From positions 1-40,150 of the forward strand of contig JAUPUE010000034.1 in NCBI GenBank assembly GCA_030917725.1: a stretch of DNA of 40,150 nt, written 5' to 3'. Source of the DNA: Patescibacteria group bacterium. Its GTDB lineage: Bacteria; Patescibacteriota; Minisyncoccia; Phycocordibacterales; EsbW-18. The position numbers and the translations under genes were made by a program. Shown here piece by piece: positions 3 to 21,974 of the stretch. The notes under the pieces were generated by a model. That model was given only the letters and a program-made list of their open reading frames with translations. It searched no databases and was not told the DNA's origin. Position 1 is the stretch's first letter. Each line of letters opens with the position of its first letter.

Positions 3-2012
3 TTGTTCGATGAGGCCGCATCGAAACTGAGTCAGATTCCTTCGGAGTGGGGTGCTGAGAGCGCGACCCGAGCACAGAAGGCCGAATACGAAAAGACCAG
101 GAAGGAATATGACACGCTTCGAGCGAGGGTCTTGTTCATGAAACAAGCTCAGACGGGGAACGATGTTGAGAGTATGTTGTGGATGAACGGGGTCGACGAG
201 CGTGTGCGATTCGATCAACTCATCTCGACGAGTCCCAGGGTAGCCGAGGAGATGCAGAGTATCCAAAACCCGAAGCTGTGGACGAAGATCATCCAGAATG
301 TCGGTGGTACGGAACGCCTCGGGTACTTCGTTGGTGGTGGCGTCACTCGAGCACTTACGGTATCTCTGTTTGGAATGGTCGGAGCACCGGTGCTTGCAGG
401 TCTTATTGGTGGTTGGCAGGCCCGCAAACGCGCTCAAGGTGCTCTGCGCGAAAGTGATCAACTCGCACGTCGCGGTGTTAAAGACACGAAAGCAACCGCT
501 CTCAACATGCTCGACGTGACGAAGAACAAGACTGCTGCAAAGCTCGAAAAGCTCGCTCAGCAGGTTGTTCAAGAGACCGACCCAGCAGAGCGAGGAAAGC
601 TCATTGCAAGCCTTCGTGAACGCATCAAATACACCCAAGAGAAGCTTGAGAGTGGCAAACTGAACTTCGGCACATTTTCTGAGCGTATCAAAAATCAGCT
701 TGATCTCAGTCAGGCACTGGGACATGCATCAGTTGTGGCTTTTGAGAATGCTGCTGACACAGATGCGGACCATGAAGCGCGGCTTTCGAAAGAGCTTGAT
801 CAGTATCTCGATTCGCGCCAGGGTGCCATTGCGGGAGAACGTGCTGATGCGGTGTGGGAGGCGACTAAGAAGGGTGCAAAGATAAGCGCCGGCTTCGGCC
901 TTGCAGGTTATTTGGTGAGCAACTTTATGCATGGCGGTAACACCGTCGACGGGCTCTTTGATTCAAAAACGGCTGATGTGGCACACCAGGGAGCTGGGGG
1001 AGGTACTCCTACGATGCCTGAAGGTGGAGAGTCGACTGTTGATGTCGTGTCGGCTCACGGACCCGGCTCAGGTGCCGCAGGGGCACAAGAACTCGCAGCG
1101 GCACAGGCAGAAAAGACTGCCGAGAGCACAGCAACGGTTCTTGAGATAGGGAATCGTGGTCCAGAAGGCTCGCTCATCAAGTATTTCACCGAACACAAAG
1201 ATATCGCAACGAAGTTTGATTGGGATGGTAAAGAGGATATCAAGGTGTGGGCGGGTAAAAAGGCTCACATGCTTTGGCGCGACCATGCTGTGGAAGCGCT
1301 CAAAACCGACGAGGTTAAAGCTTCGCTCACGGAGCTCGGTTATACCAACGATCTCGAGGGATACACCAAGATGATGACGCGCATCAAGTCGGGCGGCGTC
1401 GCTCTCGATATCGAACATAAGGGCGTAACGCTTTCGGGCATGGAGTATCTTGATAACGCACGATCAGTCGCTCCCGCAAGCGGAGAGCTCATAGAAAAGA
1501 TGGACTTTGAACCTGCTCCTTTTGAGGGCGCCCAGTCAGCAGTTTCTGTGGAATCAGGTGTTGCGTCTGGAGCGGATATCGAGGCTTCACCCGACGCCAC
1601 CGAAAGTGAATCAGCTCAAGGAGGAGTCGATGATAGCCAACTATGGAAGACGCGAGAGCCCGCTCTCCACGCAGAGCCCATAGATGAATCTCAGGTTCTT
1701 GATACGAGAGGTATGAGCGTTCCCGAAGCCGTTGTCGAGCGTATGAACCACGATCTGACAGAAGTCCTTGGTCCGGAAGATAAAGGAAAAGAAGTCTGGG
1801 ACAAGTACAGCATTTTGGGGGCTCGTCGGTTCCAAAATCTTTCTCTTGATCCAGGGCAGGATCCTGATGCAGCGCGGTTACAGGACTATCTCAAAAATCT
1901 CGAGACTCGCTCAGGCGTTCGCCCTCGTGCCCGTATCTTTTGGTTCAATCAGACAGTCGATGAATATATTCGTCTTGCGCTGAAGACCATCGAACAGAAG
2001 AGCCGATCATAA
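3..2012 (+). CDS. large hypothetical protein, 5'-truncated at the window edge; one Gly-rich hydrophobic segment
   Basis: Long ORF open at the window start. Hydrophobic stretch LGYFVGGGVTRALTVSLFGMVGAPVLAGLIGGW, then charged/coiled regions. No recognisable catalytic motif. Confidence 0.6.
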   Translation: MFDEAASKLSQIPSEWGAESATRAQKAEYEKTRKEYDTLRARVLFMKQAQTGNDVESMLWMNGVDERVRFDQLISTSPRVAEEMQSIQNPKLWTKIIQNVGGTERLGYFVGGGVTRALTVSLFGMVGAPVLAGLIGGWQARKRAQGALRESDQLARRGVKDTKATALNMLDVTKNKTAAKLEKLAQQVVQETDPAERGKLIASLRERIKYTQEKLESGKLNFGTFSERIKNQLDLSQALGHASVVAFENAADTDADHEARLSKELDQYLDSRQGAIAGERADAVWEATKKGAKISAGFGLAGYLVSNFMHGGNTVDGLFDSKTADVAHQGAGGGTPTMPEGGESTVDVVSAHGPGSGAAGAQELAAAQAEKTAESTATVLEIGNRGPEGSLIKYFTEHKDIATKFDWDGKEDIKVWAGKKAHMLWRDHAVEALKTDEVKASLTELGYTNDLEGYTKMMTRIKSGGVALDIEHKGVTLSGMEYLDNARSVAPASGELIEKMDFEPAPFEGAQSAVSVESGVASGADIEASPDATESESAQGGVDDSQLWKTREPALHAEPIDESQVLDTRGMSVPEAVVERMNHDLTEVLGPEDKGKEVWDKYSILGARRFQNLSLDPGQDPDAARLQDYLKNLETRSGVRPRARIFWFNQTVDEYIRLALKTIEQKSRS

Positions 2013-2048
2013 GAGCTCCGCAGCCACCCCTTCTCAAATCGTGGTCGT

Positions 2049-2126
2049 ACTTTCGCTGCGTGGTCCGTGTTTTGTCCTCGCAGGCTCGGAAAAACCCGGA
2101 TCCACTTCGCTCTGCGCCATAGATTT
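2049..2126 (+). repeat. left copy of a 78-bp inverted repeat (partner at 8784..8861)
   Basis: actttcgctgcgtggtccgtgttttgtcctcgcaggctcggaaaaacccggatccacttcgctctgcgccatagattt equals the reverse complement of 8784..8861 with 2 mismatches. Weaker similarity continues ~15 nt outward. Confidence 0.9.
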
Positions 2127-2180
2127 TGAATCTGTGTTTAGAAGCTAATCGCCAATCGCTAAAAGCTGTATACTGTTCCC

Positions 2181-4907
2181 ATGGAACGCTTCTCAGTCAC
2201 CCCCGAAGCACAGCTGCGAACACCGCAGGAAGAACTCACGTTTTTGCGTGAGCGGCTCAAGACGCTCGAGAATGATCTCATCGAGAAACAAGAATCGCAT
2301 GAGCATGTTGTACATGAGGTTGTTAAGACCTACGCACAGCACGAGCCCAACAAAGTGCTCGCAAAAGGTCACGAGATGCTCAAGACTGAAGTCGATGCAA
2401 TTGTTCTCGACCTCGTGCCGGAGGCTCACGATGCTCAAATGGCCGAGCTTCTCACGATTCTCCAAGAGCGTGGTGTAAAGAACGCACTTTCTGTTGTCGA
2501 AAAACTCGGTGATCTTCACATCCAAGACGACTTCCACCGATTCTTGGCCGAATACATCAAGGCTGGTTACCGTGCACAGGGGATTAAAGAGCAGGGTCCG
2601 CTCTGGAAAGCACTTACGATGACGCTCTTCGAAGTGTCGTTGCCATTCTCTGACAAAGACGCGAAGGAGCGCCCACTCAAAGAGATGATCTCATCGATGG
2701 AACAGCTCTATGCTGGTTTGGGTTCCATTGCTTCTGGATCTGACCCTGATGTCTTCACCTTTGAAATCGCGGTTTCCGGTACGGGGGAAGAGGCGACGGT
2801 CTACTGTGCGGTGCCGACCGCCAAGCGGGAGCTTTTTGAAAAGCAGCTTCTTTCGGTTTTTCCACGAGCACATTTGGTTGAGACTAAGAACGACTACAAC
2901 ATCTTTTCATCAAAAGACGCTGGTACCGCAGCTTCGGTGGCCAAGTTCACCCGTGAGAGCGCGTATCCTCTCAAGACATACGAGCAGTTTGATTTTGACC
3001 CGATGAACATCACGCTCTCTGCTTTTGCAAAGCTCGCACACACTGGCGAGGGTGCAGCGTTGCAGCTCATTGTGCGTCCGGTGGGTGATAGCTACGTCAA
3101 ACGATATGGAAAGGCAATCGACAAGCTCCGCAAAGGAGAGAAGGCCAAAGAAGTACTCGCCGATGAATCAATCGTCAAAGATATTGCTATTGGCTTCAAA
3201 GATTTTTTCATAACAAAGAAAAAGGATGATAAGCCTGAGGAGAAAATTGTCGACGAGCGCGCGGTTGAGGCAGTAACAACGAAGATTGCATACCCAATTG
3301 TCGAAACCAATCTCCGCCTTGTCGTTTCGGCTGACACTCAAGCACGCGCCGAAGCCATTCTCGATAACCTCCAAGCAACATTCAACCAGTTTGAGCTCTC
3401 AACTGGTAACAGCTTTAAGTTTAACCGTATGAAGAAGGGGGGCTTGAACAGCTTCGTCAAAAATTATACCTTCCGTCTCTTCGAATCGGGCGAGACGTTG
3501 CCGCTTAACCTTCGTGAACTTTCGACAATCTTCCATTTACCATCGGGCAATGTCGATTCATCACGCGAGCTCAAGCGCGCCAAGTCCATGAGTGTTCCTG
3601 CACCCGTTGGTTTGCCAACCGAGGGTGTTTTGTTGGGCATGAACATCCATGGCAACGTTCAAACACCTATTCATATGACGGATGGCGATCGTTTGCGCCA
3701 CTTCTACTGTGTGGGACAAACCGGTGTCGGAAAGACGACAATCCTCAAGCAGATGATTATCCAAGACATCAAAAATGGAGATGGTGTCTGTATGATTGAC
3801 CCGCACGGGTCGGACCTCATGGAGGTGCTCGCTAATATTCCACCCGAGCGTGCGGACGATGTTATTTACTTTGATCCCGCATACACCGACCGACCGATGG
3901 GTCTCAACATGCTTGAGTATGATGTGACCAAGCCTGAGCAGAAGACGTTTATCGTCAACGAACTCTTCAGCATCTTCCAAAAGCTGTATGGTGCGAACCC
4001 TGAGAGTATGGGTCCGATGTTCGAGCAATATTTCCGTAACTCAACAATGCTCGTCATTGAAGACCCAGAGACCGGCAACACACTTTCGGACGTTGGTCGT
4101 GTCATGACCGACAAAGCCTTTCGTGACCTCAAGCTTTCACGTTGTAAAAACCCCATCGTTGTGCAGTTTTGGCGTGAGGTTGCCGAAAAGGCCGGGGGAG
4201 ATGCGGCGCTCGCGAACATCGTTCCGTACATTACCTCGAAGTTTGACGTGTTCTTGGCTAATGACATCATGCGGCCAATCATCACCCAAAAGAAATCTGC
4301 GTTCGATTTCCGCGACATCATGGACAATCGCAAGATTCTTTTGGTAAATCTCTCAAAGGGCCGCCTCGGAGAAATCAATGCGAGCCTCATTGGTCTCATC
4401 ATTGTCGGCAAGATTCTCATGGCGGCACTGTCGCGTGTCGGGATGTCCTCGGATGACATGCATCCGTTCTATCTCTACATCGATGAGTTCCAGAACATCA
4501 GTACCGATTCGGTTGCACAAATCTTGTCTGAGGCGCGTAAGTACAAGCTGAGCCTCAATATGTTCCATCAGTACATCAAGCAGTTGAGTGACACCATCAA
4601 AGATGCTGTGTTTGGCAACGTGGGAACGATGTGTGCGTATCGTGTTGGTTTTGAAGACGCCGAATTTCTCGAAAAGCAGTTCAGCCCCGCCGTTTCGGCA
4701 TATGACCTTATGAACGTCGACAACTTTAATGCCTTTATCAAAATGCTTGTGCGCAACAAAGCCGAGCGTCCCTTCTCAATCTATGTCCCCAAACCAGATG
4801 CTGGGGATCCGATGATGATTGAAAAATTGAAAGAGCTGTCCTATCTCAAATTTGGCAAGCCACGCGAGGAGATTGAAGAAGAACTCCGAAAGACATACGG
4901 GATGTAG
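2181..4907 (+). CDS. VirD4/TraD-like type IV coupling-protein-family P-loop ATPase with ~500-aa uncharacterised N-terminal region
   Basis: 908-aa ORF. Walker A FYCVGQTGVGKTT, MIDPHGSD, Walker B-like FYLYIDEFQN. TATACT at 2169-2174 lies 6 nt before the ATG. Confidence 0.7.
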   Translation: MERFSVTPEAQLRTPQEELTFLRERLKTLENDLIEKQESHEHVVHEVVKTYAQHEPNKVLAKGHEMLKTEVDAIVLDLVPEAHDAQMAELLTILQERGVKNALSVVEKLGDLHIQDDFHRFLAEYIKAGYRAQGIKEQGPLWKALTMTLFEVSLPFSDKDAKERPLKEMISSMEQLYAGLGSIASGSDPDVFTFEIAVSGTGEEATVYCAVPTAKRELFEKQLLSVFPRAHLVETKNDYNIFSSKDAGTAASVAKFTRESAYPLKTYEQFDFDPMNITLSAFAKLAHTGEGAALQLIVRPVGDSYVKRYGKAIDKLRKGEKAKEVLADESIVKDIAIGFKDFFITKKKDDKPEEKIVDERAVEAVTTKIAYPIVETNLRLVVSADTQARAEAILDNLQATFNQFELSTGNSFKFNRMKKGGLNSFVKNYTFRLFESGETLPLNLRELSTIFHLPSGNVDSSRELKRAKSMSVPAPVGLPTEGVLLGMNIHGNVQTPIHMTDGDRLRHFYCVGQTGVGKTTILKQMIIQDIKNGDGVCMIDPHGSDLMEVLANIPPERADDVIYFDPAYTDRPMGLNMLEYDVTKPEQKTFIVNELFSIFQKLYGANPESMGPMFEQYFRNSTMLVIEDPETGNTLSDVGRVMTDKAFRDLKLSRCKNPIVVQFWREVAEKAGGDAALANIVPYITSKFDVFLANDIMRPIITQKKSAFDFRDIMDNRKILLVNLSKGRLGEINASLIGLIIVGKILMAALSRVGMSSDDMHPFYLYIDEFQNISTDSVAQILSEARKYKLSLNMFHQYIKQLSDTIKDAVFGNVGTMCAYRVGFEDAEFLEKQFSPAVSAYDLMNVDNFNAFIKMLVRNKAERPFSIYVPKPDAGDPMMIEKLKELSYLKFGKPREEIEEELRKTYGM

Positions 4908-4916
4908 GGCAAAATA

Positions 4917-4945
4917 AAAACAACGACCGAAATCGTTGTTTTATT
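4917..4945. terminator. rho-independent terminator hairpin
   Basis: aaaacaacga-ccgaaa-tcgttgtttt followed by T-rich tail, between convergent genes. Confidence 0.7.
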
Positions 4946-4973
4946 GTAAGACGCCCCTCCTAGGCCCTCGTTT

Positions 4974-5237
4974 TTAGACGTTCCCCTCGGAAGGTTCAAT
5001 AACTCCTTCAGTTTCTGACATGTCGGGTTTCTTGCCAGCAGAACTTTCTTGTTCAGTTCGTCTAGCTTCTTCCTCGGCTTCCATCTCAGCTCCTGTGGTT
5101 TTATCAAAGTTCTCGACCTCTTTCCGTATTTCTGGGTTAGTACGCATTTTTTCAGCCCATGCAGCAGCATCTTTTTCGTCGTTCCTCATCCGTTCCTCCT
5201 CCAAATCCTCAGGAGTTCTGTGTGACATTCCTTCCAT
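4974..5237 (-). CDS. small acidic hypothetical protein (87 aa)
   Basis: ORF rich in E/K. TATTCT -10-like box lies exactly 6 nt upstream of the ATG on the minus strand. Confidence 0.5.
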   Translation of the reverse strand: MEGMSHRTPEDLEEERMRNDEKDAAAWAEKMRTNPEIRKEVENFDKTTGAEMEAEEEARRTEQESSAGKKPDMSETEGVIEPSEGNV

Positions 5238-5416
5238 ATATGTAGAATATGATTACTTTCAATACCCAAAGAATATCAATAATCCATTTAGTATCCAAAT
5301 AACCCCAAGGGTGCTTGTTCTGCGACATATATCTAGGATTTGTACATGGTTTTTATAGGGGGGTTATTTAGAGTAAGCTTTAGGGGATATTATTTCAGAC
5401 TATCTTAGTTATCTAT

Positions 5417-5896
5417 ATGAACTTCGAATCAGCGCCACAAGAGCCAACATCAGAACGATTTGGAACAAAAAAAGAAGAGTGGATGAACCGTTTAGGAAAA
5501 CAACCGTCCGGTGAGTTACCAAAGACAGAACAAGACTGGACAATCGATCCAGAGGCGTTAATGGAACAACAAGAAGAAGAAAAGAAACTAGCAGCACGAA
5601 TTGAAGAGTATTTTGCAAAAGAAGGAACTTCTAAAGAGGAGGTATATAGAATAGTTTCCAAAATGTTACAAGGCTGGGTCGGTATACACGATGGGTTCCC
5701 ATATCTTGTAGTAGAAGGAGAGGGGACTGAGGCTTACGAAAAAAATAGGCCGCTTCCTCCTGAGATGACGCAGACTATCTACAGAGCACTCATAAGGGTG
5801 CAAGAAAAAACAGAATCTCCACTCGGGGCTGCTGAAGATTTGTTTGAGCGAGATTTGAAAGATGAAAACAGATTTGGAGGGGAGGAGTCTAAATAA
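5417..5896 (+). CDS. hypothetical acidic protein with MNFESAP N-terminus
   Basis: 159-aa ORF in a visibly AT-rich island. Its N-terminal codons are shared with the 5923 gene (ATG AAx TTy GAA TCA GCx CCA). Confidence 0.6.
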   Translation: MNFESAPQEPTSERFGTKKEEWMNRLGKQPSGELPKTEQDWTIDPEALMEQQEEEKKLAARIEEYFAKEGTSKEEVYRIVSKMLQGWVGIHDGFPYLVVEGEGTEAYEKNRPLPPEMTQTIYRALIRVQEKTESPLGAAEDLFERDLKDENRFGGEESK

Positions 5897-5922
5897 GTCC
5901 ATAGCTTAAAAACTTTAGATAT

Positions 5923-7332
5923 ATGAAATTTGAATCAGCACCAGAGGAAAAAGAACCAACGAAGGAAATTCCTAAGCAGGAAACTACCGTGGAGGACATT
6001 GAGAAAGAGGTTGTAGGTGTAGATTCTGAGAAAAACAGAGCGGAACGTTTAGTCATTCTTCGGCAGAAGCAAATCGAGTTAAAAAAGGTAATGGAAATAC
6101 TCGATGAGAGTTTCCTCAGAGAGGATAAGGGGGAGGAACATGAAAAAAAGAAAGTAAACGGTGCTGAGACGTCGTTTTATATTAAAACCAAACTTCTTCC
6201 TGAGATGATCGCGTGGACCTTAAAAAGGGAAAAGGAAGGAAAAGATATCGATTTTCTTGAATATGTTCAAGAAGAGGACCTCTCCGACTTGGATCTGGAC
6301 ATCATCATCAAAGAAATAGATCGATACAACAATCGGAAAGAGGCGGTTCCAATGAAACAGGAAGCAATGCTGGCAAAAGCAGCTTTGTGCAACGATTTAA
6401 GGTCTGATGCGCATATGATTCTTGCGGAAATCGGAAATATCGATCCAGTCATGAAGGAGATAAAATTGGGACAACTAAAGGAGGATTTTGACGAGTGGTT
6501 CGATCGATTTTTCGAGAGACTGGAAGTAAAAATTGAATTGTGGCAAGAAGGCGTGCCCTTTTTGAATGTGATTTTTGAAAAGTTTTGGGATGGTCAGGGT
6601 ACGATTGATAAGATGTTCGCCAAGCTAAGTAAAAAGAGAATGGGTCTCATCAAGCACACATTCATGTTACGCGGTCTCGCTAGAAGAATTGAAATGGTGG
6701 TGGATTTTGCTGATAAGAGTGACAACGCAGAGGAAGTTAGACACTACGCCGCCGAGGCTAAGGGGTACACCAAGCTGATGGTTGAATGGAATAATGAATA
6801 TCGACGTTTACATAGATCCTCCACAAACTCAAATATTGATGGGGCATATGATGGGATTGTAGAGGGGGCCAACAAACTGGATGAATTAGCAATCATGGAG
6901 ATTTATCCAGACCAAGAAGGAGGGCGTGGTTACCGTAAATCACCCGAATTACCTCTAGGCCTAGATAAAAGAAAAAAGGAAATTTGTGGTTCCTTGTTGG
7001 TACAAATTAGAGAACACTACGATAAACGTTCTGGCATCGAAACACGGTTTGGTTTGAATGTTGGCGAAGACGAAAAACGCAGAATACGTCGGATGTTGGA
7101 GAATGAAGCTACAGATTTTTCAAAACTGGTGACGGAGATAAGTGATGAAAATAAAATCGACAGTCTATCTGAGGAAATTAACTTATTAAAATACTCTGCA
7201 CACCAAAAAAGACTTATTTTAAGGGAAATTTCTGAACTTGATCAATTAATTTTAGATGCAAAAAGTGGATCTGTCGTGAAAACAGCGCAGGAGAAACCCG
7301 GAATTGAAGAACCCGAAGCGCAGGCAGCATAA
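5923..7332 (+). CDS. hypothetical E/K-rich, probably coiled-coil protein with MKFESAP N-terminus
   Basis: 469-aa ORF, AT-rich, heavy E/K/L content. No recognisable enzymatic motif. Confidence 0.6.
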   Translation: MKFESAPEEKEPTKEIPKQETTVEDIEKEVVGVDSEKNRAERLVILRQKQIELKKVMEILDESFLREDKGEEHEKKKVNGAETSFYIKTKLLPEMIAWTLKREKEGKDIDFLEYVQEEDLSDLDLDIIIKEIDRYNNRKEAVPMKQEAMLAKAALCNDLRSDAHMILAEIGNIDPVMKEIKLGQLKEDFDEWFDRFFERLEVKIELWQEGVPFLNVIFEKFWDGQGTIDKMFAKLSKKRMGLIKHTFMLRGLARRIEMVVDFADKSDNAEEVRHYAAEAKGYTKLMVEWNNEYRRLHRSSTNSNIDGAYDGIVEGANKLDELAIMEIYPDQEGGRGYRKSPELPLGLDKRKKEICGSLLVQIREHYDKRSGIETRFGLNVGEDEKRRIRRMLENEATDFSKLVTEISDENKIDSLSEEINLLKYSAHQKRLILREISELDQLILDAKSGSVVKTAQEKPGIEEPEAQAA

Positions 7333-7345
7333 GACTGCTTAACAT

Positions 7346-8128
7346 ATGAGTTCACACGAATCTGGGCAACAAGAGGGTCAGCCTGAACCTGCAGAAAATA
7401 GGGAGGGAGTTCCTGGCGAAGACTACTCGAAAGAATTCGAGCGTAGGATGCTTGTGGTTGAGTCCGTCGATCCAAAGACCTACACGGCAGAGATGCGGGA
7501 CGAAGACCTCAAATATTTGGATGAATGGTTTCGGTATGAACTCGGGAGACATAAGATGTTGTTGAAACAACACGCGGAGGAACTGAGAAAAAAGACACGA
7601 GAAAGTTCAGGGGATGCTGTTGCGCGGCAAGAGGTTATGGAATGGACTCAAGAAACACTTGAGGGGCTTAATGAAGCGCTTAATTCGAAGAAAAAAGAAA
7701 TCTGGAGTTTAAAGGATAGAGTTTTACAAACCTTCCTATATAAAAACACCCCAAAAGAAGAGGGAAAGAAGGAAGAGAAACCAAATAATGAAAAAGAAGG
7801 TGAAGTGGATAGTGCGCAAATAGAACAATCTGTCCTAGACAGCTTCAGTATTACCAGTGGAGAATACAAGATTATTCTTGAGAGTATTAGCACACTGAAT
7901 AATGCTGATTTTCGACGATTACTTACAAATGTGATGGAAGTTGAAACGGCAGGTGCAAAAGAAGTGAGAGATGCGTATTTGGAACTTACGCGAGAACTCC
8001 ATCCAGATACGGCGAAGACACACCTTGAGAGGGAGATTAAAGGCGCAAAGATACAGGTGGTCAATAATATGTATCAGGAGTACAAAAGACGTTTTGGAAA
8101 AGAGGGGAGTTTTGTTACGTGGGAATAA
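7346..8128 (+). CDS. hypothetical protein with C-terminal J-domain-like module (HPD motif)
   Basis: C-terminus AKEVRDAYLELTRELHPDTAKTHLEREIKGAKIQVVNNMYQEYKRRFG matches the helix II - HPD - helix III layout of DnaJ J domains. Confidence 0.6.
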   Translation: MSSHESGQQEGQPEPAENREGVPGEDYSKEFERRMLVVESVDPKTYTAEMRDEDLKYLDEWFRYELGRHKMLLKQHAEELRKKTRESSGDAVARQEVMEWTQETLEGLNEALNSKKKEIWSLKDRVLQTFLYKNTPKEEGKKEEKPNNEKEGEVDSAQIEQSVLDSFSITSGEYKIILESISTLNNADFRRLLTNVMEVETAGAKEVRDAYLELTRELHPDTAKTHLEREIKGAKIQVVNNMYQEYKRRFGKEGSFVTWE

Positions 8129-8185
8129 AATCAAGAATCCATCATTGGTTGTTGGTCATTGGTTTTTCTGGTACGATGCCCTCGT

Positions 8186-8770
8186 ATGAAAAACCCAAAA
8201 GAAGAACTCACGTATCTCATGATTAAGCCAGATGGCGTCCGTAAGGGCCTCATCGGAGAGATTATCCGCCGTCTCGAACAGCGGGATCTCAAAATCGTCG
8301 CACTCGAGATGTTCCAGCCGACGCTCGAACAGATTGACGAACATTATCCAAAAGATGAGACATGGATTGCACGCCTCGGTCAAAAGACCTTTAAGACGTG
8401 TGAGAAGTACAACGTTAGCCCTAAGGACGAATTTGGCACCGACAACGAACTCGAGATGGGGAAGTTGGTCCGCGGATGGCTTGTGAATTACATGGTCTCT
8501 GCGCCGCTCGTCAAAATGATTGTGCAGGGTACCCACGCGGTTGATATGGTCCGCAAGATTGTTGGTCCAACGCTTCCAAACCTCGCCGAGATGGGAACAA
8601 TCCGTGGTGATTTCTCAGTAGACTCTCCACTTATCGCAAATGCCGAGCACCGTGCGGTCATGAACCTTGCCCACGCATCAGAAACACCCGAAGAAGCTGC
8701 TCACGAAATCGAACACTGGTTTGGCAAGGATGCAGTTCACGCATACAAGCGCTTTGGAGTGGACGAATAG
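8186..8770 (+). CDS. ndk: nucleoside diphosphate kinase (long form with internal insertions)
   Basis: LTYLMIKPDGVRKGLIGEIIRRLE, TIRGDF and NLAHAS (active-site His) motifs. Start moved to MKNPKEEL at 8186. Confidence 0.85.
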   Translation: MKNPKEELTYLMIKPDGVRKGLIGEIIRRLEQRDLKIVALEMFQPTLEQIDEHYPKDETWIARLGQKTFKTCEKYNVSPKDEFGTDNELEMGKLVRGWLVNYMVSAPLVKMIVQGTHAVDMVRKIVGPTLPNLAEMGTIRGDFSVDSPLIANAEHRAVMNLAHASETPEEAAHEIEHWFGKDAVHAYKRFGVDE

Positions 8771-8783
8771 GCCACTGAACTCC

Positions 8784-8861
8784 AAATCTATGGCGCAGAG
8801 CGGAGTGGATCCGGGTTTTTCCGAGCTTGCGAGGACAAAACACGGACCACGCAGCGAAAGT
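8784..8861 (-). repeat. right copy of the 78-bp inverted repeat (partner at 2049..2126)
   Basis: Reverse complement matches 2049..2126 at 76 of 78 positions. Lies just after the ndk stop. Confidence 0.9.
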
Positions 8862-8926
8862 CATACCAAGATTCGTTAAAAACAAACGATTTCTTGATTT
8901 GAAGAGCCTGTCGCGAAATAGAATCC

Positions 8927-8957
8927 AAAAAACCCTCCGCTACACGGAGGATTTTTT
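8927..8957. terminator. bidirectional rho-independent terminator
   Basis: aaaaaa-cctccg-ctaca-cggagg-atttttt. Confidence 0.7.
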
Positions 8958-9177
8958 GATGCCGGTTTACATTTCATCCCACACGTATCGTGAAGAGGGT
9001 CTTTTCTTGAATTGTCCTGTGCAAGGTCTACCATTGTGGCAGGGTCGTCTCGGGCAATATCTAGATCAAGTAGATTTTTCCGGGAATCCGAATTGCCCGT
9101 CCTCCGTGGAGGATAAGCTGAGGATACCCACCTAGCTCACGCTAGGTATCACGTCTGAGATGACCCCACCAAAGAAC
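8958..9177 (+). other. structured ORF-poor intergenic region bounded by two terminators; candidate small RNA or leader
   Basis: Nested stems: cgggcaat...attgcccg; cctc-cgtg-gagg; gata..cctagc-tcac-gctagg-tatc. Only a weak 59-codon ORF is present. Confidence 0.25.
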
Positions 9178-9208
9178 CCTCCCTCGATAAAACTCGGGAG
9201 GATTTTTT
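9178..9208 (+). terminator. rho-independent terminator
   Basis: cctccc...gggagg stem followed by attttttg. Confidence 0.6.
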
Positions 9209-9224
9209 GTTATACTAATGTCAC

Positions 9225-9635
9225 ATGCGGATCGCAACGACTCGAGCACTCATAGGCCTCCTCCTCCTCGCCGGGGTCGTTTTTATTTTACACACCGTCG
9301 CAATGGACCACTTTTTCTACTGGCGATTCTGGTGGTATGACATCATGATGCATTTTACTGGCGGCATTTTGATCGGGGGGCTCATCCTGTGGGGGATTCT
9401 CCGTGTCCGTCCGAACGTATCACGTGGAAATCTTCTTCTTATGCTGGTCATTGGCACCATCATCGTCGGCATTGGTTGGGAAGTAATGGAATATGTGGGT
9501 GGTATTACGCAGGGTGAAGCGGGATATGTTTTTGATACAGTCAAAGATTTGATAATGGATACCCTTGGCGGTCTTGTTGCGTGGGGTATCTACACGTTTA
9601 CTACTCGCAGCACATCGCCCAAAGAAATTATATGA
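9225..9635 (+). CDS. small integral membrane protein (about 4 TM), hypothetical
   Basis: 136-aa hydrophobic ORF. TATACT lies 8 nt upstream of the ATG. Its stop overlaps the next start (ATGA). Confidence 0.6.
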   Translation: MRIATTRALIGLLLLAGVVFILHTVAMDHFFYWRFWWYDIMMHFTGGILIGGLILWGILRVRPNVSRGNLLLMLVIGTIIVGIGWEVMEYVGGITQGEAGYVFDTVKDLIMDTLGGLVAWGIYTFTTRSTSPKEII

Positions 9636-10999
9636 ATCCAAAACCAGCACAACTAACATTTTGCGGCGGTGTCGGCTCGGTGACCGGCGCGAATTTTCTC
9701 CTCACTACCGAAGCAGGAAAGGTGCTCGTCGATTGTGGTATGTTCCAAGGTCATCGAATGTGCAGTGACGACAACTATGCGAAGTTTCCATATGAGCCGA
9801 GCGAAATGACCGCGCTCATCGTTACACATGCGCACATCGATCATATTGGTCGTATTCCAAAACTCGTCAAAGAAGGATTTACTGGCAAAATCTACTCGAC
9901 ACTTCAAACCAAAGACCTCGCTCGTATCATGCTCGAGGATGCTGCGCACTTGGTCGTCGAAGAGGCTCGTATCTGTAAGACAACACCTCCGTACACCGAA
10001 GCGGACCTTGCTCATGTGTTTGATAACTGGGAGACAGTAACCTACCACACACCATTTCCCGTAGGTGACCTGATGGTTACGTTCCGCGATGCGGGTCACA
10101 TCCTCGGCTCTGCCCTTGTTGAGTGCGTTCACCCTGTGTCGGGCAAAATTGTGTTCACGGGTGACCTCGGTAATTCGCCAACACTTCTTCTTCGCGATAC
10201 AGAAGTCATCGACGACGCCAAGTATATGGTCATCGAGAGCGTCTACGGTGACCGTGTACACGAAGAAACGGGGGATAGGAGTCGTATCCTCGAAACTGCC
10301 ATTGAAGGCATCATCCAGCGCAAAGGGACGCTCCTCATTCCTGCGTTTTCGATCGAGCGCACCCAACTCATCCTCTATGAGATCAACAATCTCGTCGAAC
10401 AGCACCGTATTCCTGCGATTCCCGTCTTTCTTGATTCACCGCTTGCGATTCGCGTGACGGATATTTACAAAAACGCGACAGCGCTCTTTAACGAAGAGAC
10501 CAAGAAGGCTATCGATGCTGGTGATGACGTCTTTTCATTCGATAAACTCACCTTTGTAACATCTGGTCGCGACTCGCGTTCGCTCGTCGCTGTCGAAGGT
10601 CCCAAGATTATCATCGCTGGGTCAGGTATGTCGCACGGTGGTCGCATCATCCATCACGAACGTATCTATTTGGGCGATGCCAAGAACACATTGCTTATTG
10701 TTGGGTATCAATCACCGGGGTCTATTGGCCGTCAGCTTCAAGAAGGTGCCAAAGAAATCACCATTGGAGACGAACGTATCTCGGTTGCCGCAAACATTGA
10801 GACGATTCACGGCTTCTCGGGTCACCGGGATGTAAATGGTCTCATCGAATTTATCAGCGGAGCAGCAGGATCGCTCACACGTCTCTTTGTTACGATGGGG
10901 GAGCAGAAGTCGTCGCAATATCTTGCACAACGTGCGCGTGACTATCTCGGTGTTGATGCGGTTTGTCCTCAGTTGGGTGATACTGTCGATTTGCTCTAG
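9632..10999 (+). CDS. MBL-fold beta-CASP family RNA-metabolising hydrolase (RNase J/CPSF-like)
   Basis: VTHAHIDHIGRIP (HxHxDH motif), beta-CASP-like middle part, C-terminal HGFSGHRD. Start set at MNPKPAQL (9632). Confidence 0.75.
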   Translation: MNPKPAQLTFCGGVGSVTGANFLLTTEAGKVLVDCGMFQGHRMCSDDNYAKFPYEPSEMTALIVTHAHIDHIGRIPKLVKEGFTGKIYSTLQTKDLARIMLEDAAHLVVEEARICKTTPPYTEADLAHVFDNWETVTYHTPFPVGDLMVTFRDAGHILGSALVECVHPVSGKIVFTGDLGNSPTLLLRDTEVIDDAKYMVIESVYGDRVHEETGDRSRILETAIEGIIQRKGTLLIPAFSIERTQLILYEINNLVEQHRIPAIPVFLDSPLAIRVTDIYKNATALFNEETKKAIDAGDDVFSFDKLTFVTSGRDSRSLVAVEGPKIIIAGSGMSHGGRIIHHERIYLGDAKNTLLIVGYQSPGSIGRQLQEGAKEITIGDERISVAANIETIHGFSGHRDVNGLIEFISGAAGSLTRLFVTMGEQKSSQYLAQRARDYLGVDAVCPQLGDTVDLL

Positions 11000-21584: not shown

Positions 21585-21974
21585 ATGGAAAACGAATCAC
21601 TAAAAACCAAGGCTCTTATCGTGGATGACGACACATTTCTCGTGTCGCTCTATAAGAAGATGGGGGAGGAGACCGGCATGGACCTCCGCACCGCATCGAG
21701 CGGCGAAGAAGCACTCGCGCTTCTCATCGATTTCGTCCCAGACATCATTGCACTCGATATGAGCATGGCGGGTCTCAGTGGGCTCGATACGCTCAAAGAA
21801 ATCCGCGCTAAGAACCTCGCACCAAATGCGAAGGTCATCATCCTTTCGAATACCAACGAAGACGATGCCGTTGTCGAAGCCAAGGGACTCGGTGTTGAAC
21901 ACTTCATTGTCAAAGCGTCACTTCTTCCATCGCAGGTGATGGAGGAGCTTACGAAGATTGCCCGCCTTCGCTAA
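21585..21974 (+). CDS. stand-alone CheY-like response regulator receiver (3 of 3)
   Basis: ALIVDDDTF, ALDMSMAGLSG, IILSN, FIVK. Paralog of the two upstream genes. Confidence 0.85.
   Translation: MENESLKTKALIVDDDTFLVSLYKKMGEETGMDLRTASSGEEALALLIDFVPDIIALDMSMAGLSGLDTLKEIRAKNLAPNAKVIILSNTNEDDAVVEAKGLGVEHFIVKASLLPSQVMEELTKIARLR

Follow-up and report, generated by a model that had tools for sequence, protein, structure and literature searches.

Among the small dispersed repeats described in bacteria, the BOX elements of Streptococcus pneumoniae and the ERIC/IRU elements of enterobacteria are the most similar to the sequence described in this work. Both are small (~100-150 nt), non-coding repeats located in intergenic regions near gene ends, with predicted stem-loops, and both show presence/absence differences between strains, carry a variable internal module (the number of boxB units in BOX, internal inserts in ERIC) and have no transposase of their own. 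The genomes of Candidate Phyla Radiation (CPR) bacteria, or Patescibacteria, are thought to be streamlined and repeat-poor. The repeat studied here was found in a stretch of 40,150 nt (positions 1 to 40,150 of contig JAUPUE010000034.1, or C34, of the Patescibacteria group bacterium assembly GCA_030917725.1, or G000), referred to below in its entirety as the window, where two copies lie in inverted orientation on either side of a T4CP-like ATPase gene, an AT-rich island and the ndk gene. These copies probably belong to a non-autonomous repeat family of the REP/BOX/ERIC kind, kept uniform by gene conversion and frequently accompanied by a putative heptad-array promoter. The family appears to be new: full-text literature searches found no paper on small dispersed repeats in CPR/Patescibacteria, and the kind itself is known from other bacteria. 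In comparison with BOX and ERIC, to which it has no sequence relation, the variable module is here the hairpin itself, placed between two fixed arms that do not pair, and the element is present in 1-18 copies in the 0.6-0.7 Mb genomes of a CPR host.

Other described systems show partial similarities. REP/BIME sequences and REPINs, associated with RAYT transposases, are likewise extragenic imperfect palindromes with maintained pairing, produce no target duplication and can lie in 3' untranslated regions (UTRs). However, no RAYT/Y1 gene is present in three of the four genomes holding the present element, the copies number tens rather than hundreds, and the structure is that of a longer, 46-nt bulged hairpin between ~20-nt non-palindromic arms; copies are single, and the sole inverted pair of the window lies 6.65 kb apart. 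The Correia/NEMIS elements of Neisseria and other miniature inverted-repeat transposable elements (MITEs) are also ~100-150-nt non-autonomous repeats located by genes, polymorphic between strains and able to bring promoter elements, and Correia elements are characterised by 26-bp terminal inverted repeats and a TA duplication. A dispersed MITE-like element was among the roles suggested by the first-pass annotation of the window, and part of that description stands, as the repeat is small, non-coding, dispersed, multi-copy (14, 18, 7 and 1 copies in the four holders) and polymorphic in its presence. However, neither terminal inverted repeats nor target duplications were found, and the element is therefore not a textbook MITE. 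A longer element sharing the arms was absent from a self-BLAST of G000, with the search for transposases limited to Y1_Tnp. In invertible switches, such as Hin/Gin/Fim and the shufflons, inverted repeats also flank a gene-containing segment, whereas here there is no recombinase, the repeat is not locus-specific and one arm is missing in the nearest relative. Integron attC sites were rejected as well, as the copies are single, scattered over 12 contigs in both orientations and form no cassette arrays; the attC core sites (RYYYAAC / GTTRRRY) were absent on inspection of the consensus, intI not having been searched for.

The source assembly G000 (602 kb, 63 contigs, 50.6% GC, 86% complete) was compared with its relatives G006 (98% complete, used as a whole genome), G014 and G003, and with strain M, a relative present in metagenome Ga0172380, while the family comparison comprised 15 genomes of the genus and two other genera of the same family. 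A BLAST search with one arm, a check of copy number proposed by the first-pass annotation, recovered 10 further full-length and several partial copies on other G000 contigs, and the element is the most abundant repeat in the self-comparison of this genome. A covariance model of the repeat, built from 36 copies, gave 15 matches in G000, corresponding to 14 sites in unrelated intergenic places on 12 contigs and in both orientations. The same model gave 18 matches in G006, 7 in G014 and 1 in G003, whereas the remaining 11 genus genomes and the two other genera of the family, 13 genomes in all, gave none. An exact-pattern scan across 185,579 species, each represented by one genome, matched only three assemblies, all of them metagenome-assembled genomes of the holders, deposited as Candidatus Parcubacteria or Saccharibacteria and obtained from river water and other metagenomes. 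The metagenome collection yielded ten loci, all from one sample and all belonging to strain M, which is 85-95% identical to G000. A viral origin of the repeat was rejected, as scans of viral contigs gave no matches. The identity of RNase J to that of G000 is 97% in G006, 84% in G014 and 67% in G003, compared with 69% in one element-free genome and 56-61% in the others; the holders are thus the nearest relatives of G000 by this marker, which indicates that the family is clade-specific rather than truly patchy.

The missing 14% of G000 holds further copies, since loose contig ends in run X1 match the flanks of G006-type copies that are missing from the assembly. Most contig ends of G000 overlap another contig end by exactly 120-121 nt (for example, C10:3199-3319 = C20:1-121), and these are assembly-graph overlaps. 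C10 and C20 share one repeat copy at their overlap, so that the assembly broke there within the repeat.

The element is a non-coding intergenic repeat of roughly 70-120 nt (~90 nt in its common form) and consists of a 5' arm (consensus GTGGTATGACYTTCGCTGC), a central hairpin and a 3' arm (consensus TCCGCTCTGCGCCATAKATTTBGAG). In the long form, the hairpin spans 46 nt, reading GUGG-UCCG-u-GUUUU-g-UCC, the 10-nt loop UCGCAGGCUC and GGA-AAAAC-c-CGGA-u-CCAC. The arms are kept as sequence, whereas the hairpin is kept as a structure while its sequence and length vary. In the covariation analysis, also proposed at the outset, pairing in the three hairpin helices was 91-100%, with both partners substituted in five pairs. 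Neither the observed covariation score nor the observed percentage of pairing was reached in any of 500 column shuffles, and shifting the partner columns halved the pairing. Divergent copies (G000 C49, G006 C1, G014 C7) carry many more compensated positions, such as GCGGUGCCUG...CAGGCAUCCGC in G000 C49 or GUCACC...GGUGAC in the different long hairpin of G006 C1 and G014 C7. These compensatory changes imply that persistence or spread of the element depends on formation of the hairpin itself, in single-stranded DNA or in RNA. The 823 hairpin pairs comprise 810 Watson-Crick, 3 G-U and 10 A-C pairs; with almost all pairs being Watson-Crick, the transcribed strand cannot be called from G-U asymmetry, and in this small sample the near-pure Watson-Crick pairing fits a constraint on DNA or on both strands.

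Two other hairpin forms occur between the same arms. The short form is a 16-18-nt GC hairpin (CCCCGCCGCGGCGGGG), present in G000 (C59 and C36), G014 and strain M. The extra-long form, of 76 nt, is found at G000 C16:3683-3810; it is a long form whose loop contains a further, nested stem-loop of ~30 nt. The loop of this inner structure (TTCGCTAAAGCTTC) reads as the reverse complement of the loop conserved in a dispersed stem-loop family (window positions 21960, 22357, 26106 and elsewhere), which shows that one repeat family inserts into another. Additional pairings were considered and rejected. A helix between the two arms is only 55% paired, with only a GG/CC dinucleotide constant, and in the case of a pseudoknot between the loop (CGCAG) and the 3' arm (CUGCG) the arms become CCGAA or CCAAA without a loop change, while the short forms have no such loop. 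A coding role was also rejected: several frames are open over 90 nt, one of them from the ATG in GGTATGAC, with starts and stops that are not conserved, and on inspection the unrelated contexts of the copies and the compensatory changes speak against coding. An imperfect direct repeat (ACYYTCGCT ... ACTYCGCT; for example, 2049-2057 and 2103-2111) brackets the hairpin in all copies, and it is longer in the variant hairpin of G006 C1 and G014 C7 (ATGACTTTCGCT ... ATGACTTCGCT). It looks like a target duplication that an old insertion of the hairpin into a ~37-nt core would have left; no hairpin-less site consisting of the arms only was found in G000, G006 or the retrieved loci.

Comparison between strains shows gain, loss and conversion of copies. 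At least four G000 sites are common to G006 (C17, window copy 2, C48 and C62), and the extra-long C16 copy of G000 aligns with a G006 copy at a contig end. Three G000 sites are empty in G006 (window copy 1, C40 and C16:38485), and several G006 copies lie at sites that are empty or otherwise occupied in G000, with at least seven sites differing between the two genomes. At C3:18066, C40 and C16:38485, the element and the adjacent heptad array change together between filled and empty sites. At the first of these, G006 has a 155-nt block that comprises the element, the array and a further 26 nt; over 145 nt, this block is 83% identical to window copy 1 taken together with the array of that copy. 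This resemblance indicates that units larger than the element are copied between loci. The C62 locus shows a compensated variant hairpin in G000, a canonical left half mismatched with a variant right half in G014, and a fully canonical hairpin in G006. Such a pattern is the signature of gene conversion from other copies, which would also account for changes of hairpin type at a given site. Identity between orthologues is 88-98% in the cores and 82-93% in the flanks, which indicates no exceptional purifying selection; conversion or recent copying therefore contributes more to the similarity of copies within a genome than strong purifying selection does. As a side observation, intergenic regions turn over between strains sharing ~90% gene identity. 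A doubtful gene call on G000 C3, a PBP2-like gene, proved correct on translation.

The copies show an orientation bias with respect to the genes, which were called with a codon-usage gene caller. In 10 of the 14 copies of G000 and 12 of the 17 of G006, the 3' arm is followed by the start of a co-oriented gene at a distance of no more than 50 nt, the remaining copies abut the 3' end of a convergent gene, and no copy has its 5' arm near a gene start. At unique sites between tandem genes, ~14 copies are sense vs. 4 antisense, window copy 2 being among the latter, and at many sites the 5' arm lies 0-36 nt, often 0-10 nt, past the stop codon of a co-oriented upstream gene. This excess of copies co-oriented with the flanking genes suggests that orientation relative to transcription or replication matters. 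The downstream genes, identified by eye from their translations only, appear to encode products such as the T4CP-like ATPase, an MraY-like protein, PrfB (release factor 2), RmuC, a PilM-like protein and UDG (uracil-DNA glycosylase); as they share no function, a regulon was rejected and a riboswitch is equally unlikely.

The element and the gene are usually separated by an array of three or four heptads (NNNNGCY) with a TAYAMT hexamer after it. The array that stands behind window copy 1 recurs behind copies at G000 C17 and at G006 C16:3468, C17 and C16:24019, and G000 contains 40 arrays of 3-5 heptads (for example, AATTGCC AATTGCT or GGTAGCC GGTAGCT) in intergenic regions genome-wide. Across G000, the distance from the hexamer to the start codon shows a sharp peak at 6-9 nt (37 genes), and Shine-Dalgarno-like motifs precede only 50 of the 515 genes. 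The heptad array and hexamer look like unusual promoters of leaderless mRNAs. A second repeat family, of ~120-150 nt, has the form of a long palindrome (GGAAATGTTCCAG...CTGGAACATTTCC) and lies next to several copies of the element. At two separate loci, C41 and C25, it takes the place of the element's 3' half, in both cases with the break after GGTCCGTGTG.

Within the window, the first-pass annotation had described a 78-bp near-perfect inverted repeat, and this was reproduced: 2049-2126 differs from the reverse complement of 8784-8861 only at 2083 and 2107, leaving 76 of 78 positions identical, and a repeat finder lengthens the arms to 2037-2129 and 8781-8873 (93 nt, 86/93 or 92% identity, spacing 6651 nt). 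A 33-nt core occurs in the window only at these two places, and 0 of 100 shuffles matched. Both copies had been described as intergenic, and they are: copy 1 lies between the stop codon of a 669-aa open reading frame (ORF) at 2012 and the start codon of the ATPase gene, and copy 2 follows the stop codon of ndk. The description of the enclosed genes as the ATPase, four island ORFs and ndk agrees with both Pfam and GC content. Copy 2 starts 10 nt past the ndk stop codon (8770), is antisense to ndk and stands upstream of a strong terminator-like hairpin; as this terminator lies beyond it, copy 2 is probably inside the ndk transcript, in the presumed ndk 3' UTR. Past the terminator, ~250 nt contain no scored ORF and are followed by a second terminator-like site at 9183-9198. 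The features of the window and related features of other G000 contigs are listed in Table 1.

Table 1. Coordinates of the repeat copies, their parts and neighbouring features (window positions unless a G000 contig is named).
Feature	Position	Strand	Details
Repeat copy 1, long form	2041..2129	+	Covariance-model match 2037-2133, 112.5 bits
Copy 1, 5' arm	2041-2059	+	GTGGTCGTACTTTCGCTGC; from alignment
Copy 1, central hairpin	2060-2105	+	16 bp and one 1x1 loop; loop TCGCAGGCTC at 2078-2087
Copy 1, 3' arm	2106-2129	+	TTCGCTCTGCGCCATAGATTTTGA; from alignment
Repeat copy 2, long form	8781..8869	-	Covariance-model match 8777-8873, 114.7 bits
Copy 2, 5' arm	8869-8851	-	
Copy 2, hairpin	8850-8805	-	
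Copy 2, 3' arm	8804-8781	-	
Heptad array and -10-like hexamer	2145..2174	+	CTAATCG CCAATCG CTAAAAG; TATACT at 2169-2174, 6 nt before ATG 2181
Fragment of second intergenic repeat family	2015..2034	+	GCTCCGCAGCCACCCCTTCT; by eye against G000 C25 and C41 junctions and C62 upstream flank
T4CP-like (VirD4/TraD-like) ATPase gene	2181..4907	+	Weak Pfam matches: T4SS-DNA_transf 1.1e-6, TraG-D_C 8.3e-5; neighbour, outside repeat
AT-rich island	4910..8160	+	Four ORFs without Pfam family; 41% GC (vs. 50%)
ndk gene	8159..8770	+	Pfam NDK 2.8e-34; neighbour
Bidirectional intrinsic-terminator-like hairpin, strong	8925..8959	.	Terminator scan
Heptad arrays, examples	G000 C25:1882-1902, C48:600-620, C16:38455-38475; window 2145-2183		
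Second repeat family, examples	G000 C41:6210-6328, C15:8355-8474, C29:3922-4044; window 2015-2034 (fragment)		

Taken as a non-autonomous repeat family, the element would have originated in an ancestor shared by a small subclade within one CPR genus, where it would have multiplied to reach 7-18 copies per genome. Through gene conversion, dispersed copies would be kept alike and hairpin types would be swapped at a fixed site, and copies would be gained and lost with the neighbouring intergenic DNA, often as a ~150-nt unit of element, heptad array and a -10 box located 6-9 nt before the start codon. Several observations weigh against this explanation. No terminal inverted repeats are present, the arms not being reverse complements on inspection, and no consistent target-site duplication was seen in the four clean filled/empty comparisons (C3:18066, window 2022-2144, C40 and C16:38485). 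Most filled/empty differences replace the whole intergenic spacer rather than being clean insertions, so that the apparent mobility could be recombination or deletion. The aligned copies are often orthologues or conversion products, and the covariation counts therefore overstate the number of independent events, while the fold of a single copy is no more stable than that of shuffled sequences (z -0.4 to -2.0, either strand). In addition, an RNA function for the element may be compatible with the pair types, G000 is only 86% complete with unassembled copies visible in the reads, and the HUH/Y1 family, to be expected for hairpin elements of the REP or IS200 type, is absent from three of the four holders.

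As the main alternative, it is conceivable, although we consider it rather unlikely, that the repeat is instead a cis-acting structured RNA of 3' UTRs and intergenic operon parts, acting as an mRNA stabiliser, a processing site or an unconventional terminator or insulator that shields a downstream leaderless promoter. Such a role would agree with the compensatory changes that keep the hairpin paired, with the predominance of sense copies between tandem genes and the closeness of their 5' ends to upstream stop codons, and with the position of copy 2 between the ndk stop codon and the ndk terminator. Contigs from runs labelled as RNA-Seq span whole copies and both flanks; however, these runs have low coverage and consist of unstranded contigs of uncertain purity. 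The hairpin is not followed by a U-tract, and the terminator scan does not flag the element. Moreover, several copies lie between divergent genes (G000 C16:38485 and C40), where no upstream transcript is expected, four sites are antisense, G-U pairs are almost missing from the hairpin, and the downstream genes have no function in common. Rfam 15 gave no match on the window at gathering thresholds, and none at E values up to 10 on 1990-2200.

A related and more speculative proposal, to which we give little weight, is that the element, the array and the -10 box together form a portable insulated promoter cassette, in which the hairpin would stop or process transcripts from the upstream gene while the array and TATACT would start a leaderless mRNA for the next one. 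If this were true, ultra-small CPR genomes would rewire their operon boundaries by gene-conversion copying of a ~150-nt cassette.

We regard it as improbable that the repeat is a REP- or PATE-like element whose hairpin is recognised in trans by an HUH (Y1) transposase (RAYT or IS200/IS605 type) that mobilises the element as single-stranded DNA. The conserved, imperfect and bulged hairpin is of the expected kind, with Watson-Crick changes that work on both strands, and terminal inverted repeats and target duplications are both lacking, as in IS200/IS605; the orientation bias could, in turn, reflect the replication strand. Y1_Tnp genes do exist in the genus: IS200/IS605-type genes with open frames of 221-286 aa were found in 7 of the 15 genomes (G001, G002, G004, G007, G009, G012 and G014). 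However, of these seven carriers only G014 holds the element, PF01797 being absent from the holders G000, G006 and G003 and present in six element-free genomes of the genus, and a link to RAYT/IS200 was rejected for this lack of correlation. The hairpin is also 46 nt long, without a conserved GTAG-type leader, and the copies form no REPIN doublets and number 1-18 rather than hundreds.

A site bound by a protein at the DNA level upstream of promoters, whether an operator, a nucleoid or a cruciform-binding site, is very improbable. It would account for arms that are conserved in sequence yet unpaired, for the location of most copies just upstream of promoter-like heptad arrays and for the almost purely Watson-Crick pairs. 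Against it stand the lack of a common function among the downstream genes, the coexistence in one genome of hairpin variants with different half-sites (G000 C49, C62 and the short forms) and the copies that adjoin convergent gene ends with no promoter near.

Finally, the two window copies could be thought to act as a pair, as the first-pass annotation had proposed for an invertible 6.7-kb segment or for the ends of a composite mobile unit with the ATPase, the island and ndk, since a 93-nt, 92% inverted repeat flanks a segment that holds a variable island. However, window 1-36455 is collinear with contig C5 of G006, and the gene order is also collinear in strain M (L069). The copy-1 site measures 19 nt in G006 vs. 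123 in G000 (window 2022-2144), the element being absent and the heptad array and ATPase following as in G000, and in strain M it holds the short form, which leaves that strain without the long inverted repeat. By comparison, the site of copy 2, behind ndk, has the long form in G000, G006 (C5:20648-20744) and M (L069), and the short form in G014. The AT-rich island is a separate insertion/deletion polymorphism whose borders, the ATPase stop codon and the GTTGGTCATTGG motif, do not coincide with the repeats. It is missing in G006 (C5 20017 joins 20031) and in strains of wastewater runs X6, X26 and X28, where 4909 joins 8161 via the 13 nt GTGGTCGCAATGG. A terminator-like hairpin of its own opens the island, immediately behind the ATPase stop codon. 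A Pfam search on all nine ORFs from 3 to 10999 detected no recombinase or transposase domain.

Population data were available from 20 DNA runs with the region, all as k=31 contigs, which collapse the 93-nt repeat and cannot phase across it; at 95% likeness, no inverted junction was present in these contigs. The freshwater runs X1-X5 contain this genome at 18-40x. At 90% likeness, a single joint between opposite strands, 2142/8778, appeared in three runs with ~30 nt on its short side, but its register does not fit recombination within the repeats, and it is no longer seen at 95%. Given that the loose ends of the run match the flanks of unassembled copies, we infer that an unassembled further copy is its likeliest source. 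The first-pass annotation had itself named dispersal without a pairing logic as the outcome that would count against a pair, and this is essentially what was found, with ~14 unrelated intergenic sites on 12 contigs. That the two copies operate as a pair is thus hardly credible; their inverted layout 6.65 kb apart is incidental, and nothing indicates that they delimit a 6.7-kb unit capable of inversion or transposition. Antisense pairing between + strand transcripts of the two copies, also suggested at first, is possible.

These results also call for caution in genome interpretation, as inversion or transposition does not necessarily follow from the presence of a long, near-perfect inverted repeat on either side of a gene module. 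A genome of 0.6 Mb holds at least four interacting families of intergenic modules, namely the arm-hairpin-arm element, the nested 31-nt stem-loop, the ~120-nt palindromic repeat and the heptad-array promoters. The turnover of such intergenic sequences is useful for strain typing and for explaining assembly breaks, such as those of C10 and C20, as well as the evolution of promoters and operon boundaries in organisms that are not yet manipulable.

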